Assembly: GCA_902772435.1 (NCBI GenBank)
Contig: CACYAX010000001.1
Location: 4,987-68,986, forward strand
Source of the DNA: an uncultured Coriobacteriaceae bacterium
GTDB taxonomy: Bacteria; Actinomycetota; Coriobacteriia; Coriobacteriales; Atopobiaceae
DNA: 64,000 bases
Direction of reading: 5' to 3'
Shown: piece by piece, positions 7,929 through 9,157 of the stretch
Layout: each line of letters starts with the position of its first letter
Position numbering within the stretch: position 1 is the first letter of the stretch
Position numbers and translations under genes: made by a program
Notes under the pieces: model-generated
Told to the model about the DNA's origin: nothing
The model's input: the letters and a program-made list of their open reading frames with translations, nothing else
The model's database searches: none

Positions 7929-9157
7929 ATGGCCAAGCAGAAGTTCGATCGTACTAAGCCGCACGTAAACATCGGTACCATTGGTCACGTTGACCACGGT
8001 AAGACCACCCTTACCGCAGCCATCACCAAGGTTCTCTCCGAGACCCCTGGCTGCAAGGCTGACTTCACCGCATTCGATCAGATCGACAAGGCTCCCGAGG
8101 AGCGCCAGCGCGGCATCACCATTTCCGTCGCCCACGTTGAGTATGAGACCGAGGCTCGTCACTACGCTCACGTTGACTGCCCGGGCCACGCTGACTACAT
8201 CAAGAACATGATCTCCGGTGCTGCCCAGATGGACGGCGCTATCCTCGTCATCGCCGCTACCGACGGCCCCATGGCCCAGACCCGCGAGCACATCCTCCTC
8301 GCCCGTCAGGTCGGCGTTCCCTACATCATCGTCTTCCTGAACAAGTGCGACATGGTTGACGACGAAGAGCTCCTCGACCTCGTCGAGATGGAGACCCGTG
8401 ACCTCCTCTCCGAGTACGACTTCCCCGGCGACGATCTCCCCATCGTCCGTGGTTCCGCTCTCAAGGCCCTCGAGGGCGACGCTGCCTACTACGACAGCAT
8501 CCGTGAGCTCATGCACGAGGTCGACACCTACATCCCGACCCCGGCCCGCGACGACGAGAAGCCGTTCCTGATGGCTATCGAGGACGTCATGACCATCTCC
8601 GGCCGCGGCACCGTCGCATCTCCGGCCGCGGCACCGTCGCTACCGGCCGTGTCGAGCGTGGTACCCTCCACCTCAACGAGAAGGTCCAGATCGTCGGCAT
8701 CCGTGAGACCCAGGAGTCCACGGCCACCGGCATCGAGATGTTCCGCAAGACCATGGACGAGTGCATGGCTGGCGACAACGTCGGTATCCTCCTGCGTGGC
8801 ATCAAGCGCGAGCAGATCGAGCGCGGCCAGGTCCTCTGCAAGCCCGGCTCGGTTACCCCGCACCGCAAGTTCACCGGCGAGATCTACGTCCTCACCAAGG
8901 AGGAGGGTGGCCGTCACACCCCGTTCTTCAGCGGCTATCGCCCCCAGTTCTACTTCCGCACCACCGACGTCACCGGTGACATCCAGGAGCTCCGTGACCA
9001 GTCCGGCAACGCTGTCGAGATGGCCATGCCTGGCGACCACATCACCGTCGTCTGCGAGCTCATCCACCCGATCGCCATGGAGCAGGGCCTGAAGTTCGCT
9101 ATCCGCGAGGGCGGCCACACCGTCGGCGACGGCCGCGTCTCCACCATCGAGGACTAG
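7929..9157 (+). pseudogene. tuf: Elongation factor Tu, frameshifted as written by a 23-bp tandem duplication at 8595-8640
   Basis: The N-terminal part ([27 protein letters not shown]...TISGRGTVA) is in one frame. The C-terminal part (...[23 protein letters not shown]...STIED) is in the +2 frame. Removing one repeat copy gives an intact 401-aa EF-Tu. Confidence 0.9.
8595..8640. repeat. Perfect tandem duplication of ATCTCCGGCCGCGGCACCGTCGC (2 x 23 bp)
   Basis: Copies at 8595-8617 and 8618-8640 are identical. Confidence 0.95.

Follow-up and report, generated by a model that had tools for sequence, protein, structure and literature searches.

A perfect 23-bp tandem duplication that breaks the tuf gene (EF-Tu) in the 64-kb stretch of DNA analysed here (the window) is almost certainly an error of assembly or of later handling of the sequence, and not a piece of biology. 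This conclusion is reached because independent copies of the gene from the same species are intact, and because a second essential gene nearby is similarly broken. The two lesions are private to the window, the background in which they lie matches that of other assemblies, and lesions of the same class are present in sister assemblies. The EF-Tu of the organism is almost certainly normal, and the duplication is without biological weight.

The duplication and the tuf reading frame

The repeated unit, ATCTCCGGCCGCGGCACCGTCGC, is present as two back-to-back copies inside tuf, at 8595-8617 and 8618-8640 of the + strand. Copy 1 covers the authentic-frame codons ISGRGTVA, copy 2 has the same letters, and the junction between them (8617/8618) reads GCACCGTCGC/ATCTCCGGCC. 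A perfect 23-bp tandem duplication at this place had been described in an earlier, sequence-only reading of this DNA, and it is confirmed both by a direct read and by TRF, which gives a period of 23, 2.0 copies, 100% matches, and no indels. The duplicate copies are 100% identical, and the sequence surrounding them is otherwise unaltered; identity at a period of 23 extends over 8594-8640 (47 nt), which leaves a flanking microhomology of just 1 nt. The repeat is the sole perfect tandem duplication with a period of at least 12 in the 64-kb window, and the chance expectation for a perfect duplication of period 23, given 64 kb and the window's base composition, is ~4e-9. (The GC content of the window is 63%.)

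The disrupted tuf gene lies at 7929-9157 (+ strand), starting with an ATG at 7929 that is preceded by GGAGG and extending to the authentic stop codon, TAG, at 9155-9157. As written, frame 0 runs to a TGA at 9090-9092 and specifies a product of 387 aa, which consists of ~230 authentic residues (to ...TISGRGTVA) followed by 157 that are out of frame. Beyond the repeat, authentic EF-Tu (domains 2 and 3) is found in the +2 frame downstream of 8640, where it continues to the TAG at 9155-9157; removal of one copy of the unit yields an unbroken EF-Tu of 401 aa. Translation bears out what had been claimed from the letters on both of these points, namely that the EF-Tu frame begins at ATG 7929 and resumes in the +2 frame to end at 9157, and that the deletion of a single copy in silico restores the 401-aa protein.

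The extent of the damage is apparent when the products are compared with the NCBIfam profile TIGR00485 (EF-Tu equivalog), which has 394 positions and a cut-off of 522.4 bits. At 431.3 bits, the product as written (7929-9089) falls short of the cut-off, and its match is confined to profile positions 1-229; the intact EF-Tu of the same species reaches 718.8 bits over positions 1-392. Similarly, GTP_EFTU, GTP_EFTU_D2, and GTP_EFTU_D3 are not found in a single frame of the window tuf; in same-species relatives, the three EF-Tu domains occur together in one 401-aa product. The window gene is an EF-Tu gene by descent, and its written frame encodes an incomplete EF-Tu.

A separate observation concerns the conservation of this part of the gene. 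Within 8580-8658 of the repaired tuf, a stretch of 56 nt is exactly that of the EF-Tu genes of two other loci (L114 and L115), which are ~70% identical at the protein level and are located in the classical rpsG-fusA-tuf operon. This match around the ISGRGTV motif represents extreme nucleotide-level conservation among high-GC bacteria.

Gene order and the number of tuf loci

The gene order in this part of the window starts with tRNA-Tyr, tRNA-Thr, tRNA-Met, tuf, rpmG, tRNA-Trp, secE, nusG, rplK, rplA, rplJ, and rplL. These genes are followed by a pilus/adhesin and sortase island, rpoB, rpoC, other genes, rpsL, rpsG, fusA, and rpsJ, and then by two inserted genes and rplC, rplD, rplW, rplB, rpsS, and rplV. 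The three tRNA genes immediately 5' of tuf, tRNA-Tyr(GTA), tRNA-Thr(GGT), and tRNA-Met(CAT) (7585-7846, + strand; ARAGORN and Rfam), form a set that also precedes tuf in the three Coriobacteriia loci checked for it (L021, L023, and L024). A promoter-like sequence, TTGACA-17-TATATT (7507-7535), is positioned 50 nt 5' of tRNA-Tyr; it is of the σ70 type and near consensus (11/12 matches), and it fits a tRNA-tuf co-transcript like that of the Escherichia coli tufB operon. On the other side of the gene, a hairpin read from the sequence at 9188-9215 (+ strand), GCCCGGCAC-TTCG-GTGCCGGGC followed by TTTTTT, is likely to be the intrinsic terminator of tuf; it is absent from the output of the consensus scan. 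Farther upstream, a repeated segment at 7332-7429, between a NUDIX gene and the tRNA cluster, is shorter by 65 bp in L001, L004, and L010 and differs by 82 bp in L002, which looks like natural variation in the number of intergenic repeats.

Several other features of this region are of note in their own right. The pilus/adhesin island (13641-28099), which lies between rplL and rpoB, splits the usually contiguous rplKAJL-rpoBC cluster; it contains a 3110-aa SpaA/DUF7601 protein, a 557-aa LPXTG pilin, two sortases, and an FctA-type pilin, and 7 contigs of different samples encode an identical 3110-aa product. A second insertion (50262-60297), located between rpsJ and rplC, interrupts the S10 operon with genes for a 467-aa GerE/LuxR-type membrane regulator and a 2784-aa He_PIG/SLH surface protein, and it is kept in all of the same-species contigs. 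A 51-bp tandem repeat (46330-46470; 2.7 copies, 81% matches) lies in the spacer that separates rpsL from the 2-oxoacid:ferredoxin oxidoreductase genes; its copy number and small indels differ among relatives (by 51, 207, and 258 bp).

The arrangement of the window tuf, with tRNAs-tuf-rpmG-tRNA-Trp-secE-nusG, matches the conserved order of the lineage: tuf-rpmG-secE-nusG-rplK-rplA is present in all 11 of the Coriobacteriia loci compared (in one of them, secE scored too low to be reported). The str operon is another matter in this species. Here fusA (47597-49690, + strand) and rpsJ (49736-50059, + strand) are 46 nt apart with no tuf between them, in accord with the earlier statement that no tuf follows fusA and that rpsJ begins within 60 bp. 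The same adjacency of fusA and rpsJ is found in five same-species contigs, which indicates that the missing str-operon tuf is natural in the species. A second tuf was not seen in the window, in the same-species contigs, or, among the matches listed, in the 11 Coriobacteriia genomes, each of which has one tuf locus among those matches. Because the window tuf is the only tuf locus seen, lethality would be the expected outcome of a genuine frameshift there. Among named relatives, the EF-Tu proteins of Atopobiaceae MAGs (93%) and Paratractidigestivibacter (88%) are nearest to this one; the best of the matches listed for species-representative genomes, among which the window's species does not appear, are Lancefieldella (88%), Atopobium sp. 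UBA2090 (86%), and, at 83%, both Atopobiaceae UBA5363 and Collinsella.

Same-species assemblies and a second lesion in rplJ

A direct comparison was possible with 33 loci from independent metagenome assemblies, which were found through exact-product look-ups of neighbouring genes. These loci are ~98.4-100% identical to the window (most >99%) and jointly span positions 47-64000. The species is present in samples labelled STEW19 (SAMEA53838xx), which we take to be those of the cattle-rumen study of Stewart et al. 2019.

Each of the 12 same-species contigs that span the tuf site (~99-100% identical and from independent samples) has a single copy of the 23-mer, and the EF-Tu of these loci, where complete, is 401 aa. 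Comparison with the orthologous locus, which had been proposed from the sequence as a check, consequently finds the duplication in 0 of 12 relatives. After repair, the window tuf is nucleotide-identical to the genes of L002 and L003 (0 codon differences); relative to other strains it has synonymous changes only, except for one substitution in L005/L101. Given that it is 0 codons away from the intact genes of L002 and L003, the gene has not decayed and bears no sign of relaxed selection.

Measured against the 33 loci, the region 47-64000 contains exactly two window-private lesions, the gain of 23 bp in tuf and a loss of 89 bp in rplJ; the private SNPs in the 64-kb window number 6. The second lesion, which lies 3.9 kb downstream of the tuf repeat, had not been mentioned in the sequence-only reading. 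The disrupted rplJ gene (L10; 12335-12770, + strand) is missing 89 nt at a junction at 12480-12482 (1 nt of ambiguity), where 12481/12482 reads GGCGCCAA/CTTACGTG. The deletion removes codons ~50-79 and is out of frame; the N-terminal frame ends at a TGA at 12497-12499, and the C-terminal 94 codons are in a different frame. All 13 relatives that span this site keep the 89 nt and a 174-aa L10, and the two flanks of the deletion, for which the microhomology is 1 nt, have the same nucleotide sequence in L104 as in the window. A viable cell could not carry two null lesions of this kind, separated by 3.9 kb, in essential genes that have no other visible copy. Moreover, because rplJ is also frameshifted, a second tuf elsewhere in the genome would not restore viability.

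A clear switch in strain affinity, such as a chimeric contig join might produce, was not found at either junction; on each side, the window agrees with L002, L003, and L104. Dense blocks of SNPs are seen elsewhere, within contigs that are otherwise nearly identical: one in rplA (11668-11940) relative to L002 (44 differences) and L010, and another at 12443-12457, just 5' of the rplJ deletion point, relative to L006/L102. These blocks suggest inter-strain recombination or the mosaic assembly of co-existing strains. A search of JGI metagenomes with the 29-mer that spans the tuf junction gave 0 matches, in a collection that, according to the positive control, is without the species itself; the 3 matches to the control were EF-Tu genes of other taxa, ~70% identical, with 56 nt exact.

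These comparisons bear on the idea that the duplication is a real mutation, that is, a recent tuf pseudogene tolerated through another copy of tuf or a variant from a heterogeneous population that entered the consensus. Replication slippage does produce short tandem duplications, and the window represents 64 kb of a genome in which a second tuf could be located elsewhere. However, no relative shares the duplication, tuf is otherwise unchanged, and rplJ, which is normally single-copy and essential, is frameshifted within 3.9 kb. In addition, the str operon of the species lacks tuf, a single tuf locus is present in each of the 11 Coriobacteriia genomes (among the matches listed), and a lethal allele cannot reach the majority of a consensus. 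Neither further decay, nor presence in relatives, nor a functional paralogue, any of which would be expected of a genuine pseudogene, was found in the window, the same-species contigs, and the matches listed for the 11 genomes. A real mutation of this kind is consequently held to be most improbable. Of the four options that had been offered for the duplication, with no choice made among them, that of an assembly or consensus artefact is supported, and those of a tolerated pseudogene and a heterogeneous population fare poorly, because the repaired tuf matches intact genes, because rplJ is broken as well, and because no second tuf locus is seen.

It could also be asked whether a real duplication is rescued during translation, either by a ribosomal hop of 23 nt or by a -1 frameshift after GCA 8616-8618. 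For each codon of copy 1, the same codon recurs 23 nt downstream as a landing site, and a hop would generate wild-type EF-Tu; as 23 = 2 mod 3, the -1 shift would yield EF-Tu with a duplicated ISGRGTVA octapeptide. (The earlier assertion that a 23-nt shift lies beyond the reach of +1/-1 frameshifting is arithmetically wrong, since the -1 shift at this position restores the frame.) Yet the only X XXY YYZ heptamer in tuf is at 8180, away from the repeat; no stop codon follows the possible take-off site, the first frame-0 stop being that at 9090; and the RNA structure predicted for 8570-8690 does not exceed that of shuffled sequences in stability (z = -0.61). The duplication is conserved in no relative, and the deletion in rplJ, with its 30 lost codons, is beyond any rescue by recoding. 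Given the lack of a heptamer, of a stimulatory structure, and of conservation, rescue by -1 frameshifting or bypassing was rejected, and it is scarcely credible as an account of this gene. The same must be said of the suggestion that a real duplication gives wild-type EF-Tu through the 23-nt hop, or that slippage reversibly switches the lesion on and off in a polyploid cell; the chance of either is minute. Overall, a real pseudogene or recoding is very unlikely. Were the lesions real, it would be remarkable that the only visible tuf and rplJ are both inactivated, and a true hop or on/off lesion would constitute unprecedented recoding or phase variation in a core translation factor.

Assembly joins and the origin of the lesions

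Lesions of this general class are common in the public assemblies of the species. The ENA contigs named 'scaffold_N' contain ~14 private lesions (in L001/L012/L016/L112, L002, L003, L004, L009, L013/L017, and L019). Three of these retain runs of N (2, 9, and 16 N), which places those three lesions at scaffold joins; most of the others involve the clean loss of 19-141 bp, and the microhomology at their junctions is 0-3 nt (two more deletions, of 15 and 51 bp, stand outside this junction count). Among the genes affected are rplA (-20 bp), rpoB (-141 bp), fusA (-112 bp), rpsJ (-55 bp), and rplC (-69 bp), as well as tuf itself: L009 has lost 38 bp and carries NN at a position 43 bp upstream of that of the window's repeat, and L004 has lost 15 bp, such that 2 of 5 of these public scaffold assemblies have a different tuf lesion. 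The lesion density in the public scaffold assemblies of the species is ~one per 5-10 kb, and false truncated proteins (a 181-aa 'EF-Tu', a 664-aa 'EF-G', and a 1113-aa 'RpoB') have entered the databases as a result. In the MEGAHIT k141_ contigs of the species, there are no gene-breaking lesions, only small intergenic indels or indels shared among strains.

The artefacts demonstrated in the sister assemblies are nearly all deletions. The rplJ lesion of the window is indistinguishable in kind from the collapsed-gap deletions of the scaffold_N assemblies; the tuf lesion differs from them in that it is a gain of sequence rather than a loss. The sister loci contain only one further perfect tandem duplication, of 20 bp, in which TCAGGATTCCTGCGTCCTCC is present twice in L002 (15397-15436). 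This duplication is non-coding and without a comparator, and the scaffold that carries it departs from the window after ~14400; the L002 scaffold may be chimeric, and its 20-bp duplication may be another unmerged overlap.

Taken together, these results argue that the duplication is probably a 23-bp overlap that was left unmerged where two contigs were joined, accompanied at the next join by the collapse of an 89-bp gap. The window was assembled from the short reads of a metagenome and represents an uncultured Atopobiaceae bacterium of the rumen. An upstream contig would have ended at ~8617, and the next contig would have begun with the 23 bases that closed the first; during scaffolding or merging, the two pieces would then have been concatenated and their overlap left in place, with the consequence that the 23 bases were written twice. 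(Both the contig ends and the software step are deduced rather than observed.) At the next join (12480-12482) the opposite error would have occurred: a true gap of 89 bp would have been closed with zero bases, causing the partial loss of rplJ. The organism itself would then have an intact, single tuf of 401 aa in a tufB-like operon (tRNAs-tuf-rpmG-tRNA-Trp-secE-nusG).

The position of the duplicated unit agrees with this account. It lies inside a stretch of sequence that is exactly common to other taxa (41 nt are shared with Atopobium sp. UBA2090, and 56 nt with the EF-Tu genes of only 70% identity), and such shared stretches are where metagenome assembly graphs break; the support that this lends to an artefact is weak, as ~40% of tuf falls in stretches exactly shared across taxa. 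One proposal for the length of the repeat, that 23 was the k of the assembler (the default k of SOAPdenovo is 23), was dropped for want of any indication of the assembler.

Assembly behaviour of the required type has been described. As described by Chen et al. 2020 (PMC7111523), scaffold joins made by IDBA-UD and CLC were found to contain duplicated sequence even though the flanks overlapped, and local assembly errors were prominent in IDBA-UD; such join errors place incorrect protein-coding genes in public databases. In the work of Stewart et al. 2019 (PMC6785717), each rumen sample was assembled with idba_ud, and from their naming we infer that the 'scaffold_N' contigs are those idba_ud assemblies.

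The lesions could instead have been added after assembly, through a deliberate or accidental in-silico edit or through corruption of a file or consensus, with tuf and rplJ intact in the original. This possibility is unlikely, but it has to be weighed. There are exactly two clean lesions, one a duplication and the other a deletion, both hitting conserved essential genes and neither with more than 1 nt of microhomology; the background is otherwise identical to public contigs; and the window contains no Ns. It is also the case that the frameshifted products (those of 387 aa, of 139 aa from the C-terminal part, and the 94-aa rplJ fragment) have no gene call on record. This last point is uninformative, however, because the gene index equally lacks an undamaged 878-aa protein of the window that carries a private R134. 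Furthermore, since similar lesions arise at ~one per 5-10 kb in the public scaffold assemblies of the species, editing need not be invoked.

The importance of the two lesions is for the quality of sequence data. In scaffolded short-read metagenome assemblies of this species, core genes (tuf, rplJ, rplA, rpoB, fusA, rpsJ, and rplC) often carry private lesions, which give rise to false pseudogenes, truncated proteins, and a lower apparent completeness of marker genes. Scans for broken essential genes will keep flagging such sites, and a useful filter is provided by independent assemblies of the same species together with a search for co-occurring lesions.

The setting of the window tuf and the nature of its lesions can be compared with several known systems. 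The tufB operon of E. coli has the order thrU-tyrU-glyT-thrT-tufB, followed by secE-nusG-rplKAJL-rpoBC. In the window, EF-Tu likewise has tRNA genes directly upstream and rpmG, tRNA-Trp, secE, nusG, rplK, rplA, rplJ, and rplL downstream; unlike E. coli, the lineage of the window has no tufA-like copy after fusA. Translational bypassing is known from gene 60 of phage T4, and programmed -1 frameshifting is known as well. The window resembles the bypass in gene 60 only in that the take-off and landing codons match, as they must in a perfect repeat; the signals that accompany bypassing or -1 frameshifting, namely a stop codon after the take-off site, a hairpin, a slippery heptamer, and conservation, are missing. 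A further likeness is to the duplications known from scaffold joins. There are no N residues in the window, including at both junctions, and the two tuf copies differ from known join duplications in having no N between them; yet most lesions in the sister assemblies are also without N, which indicates that a run of N is not required for a join artefact. In other respects the two correspond: as in the known cases, there is a perfect short duplicate exactly where assembled pieces would meet, it is accompanied by a further join error in the same scaffold, it is absent from independent assemblies, and it leaves an incorrect protein-coding gene in its place.
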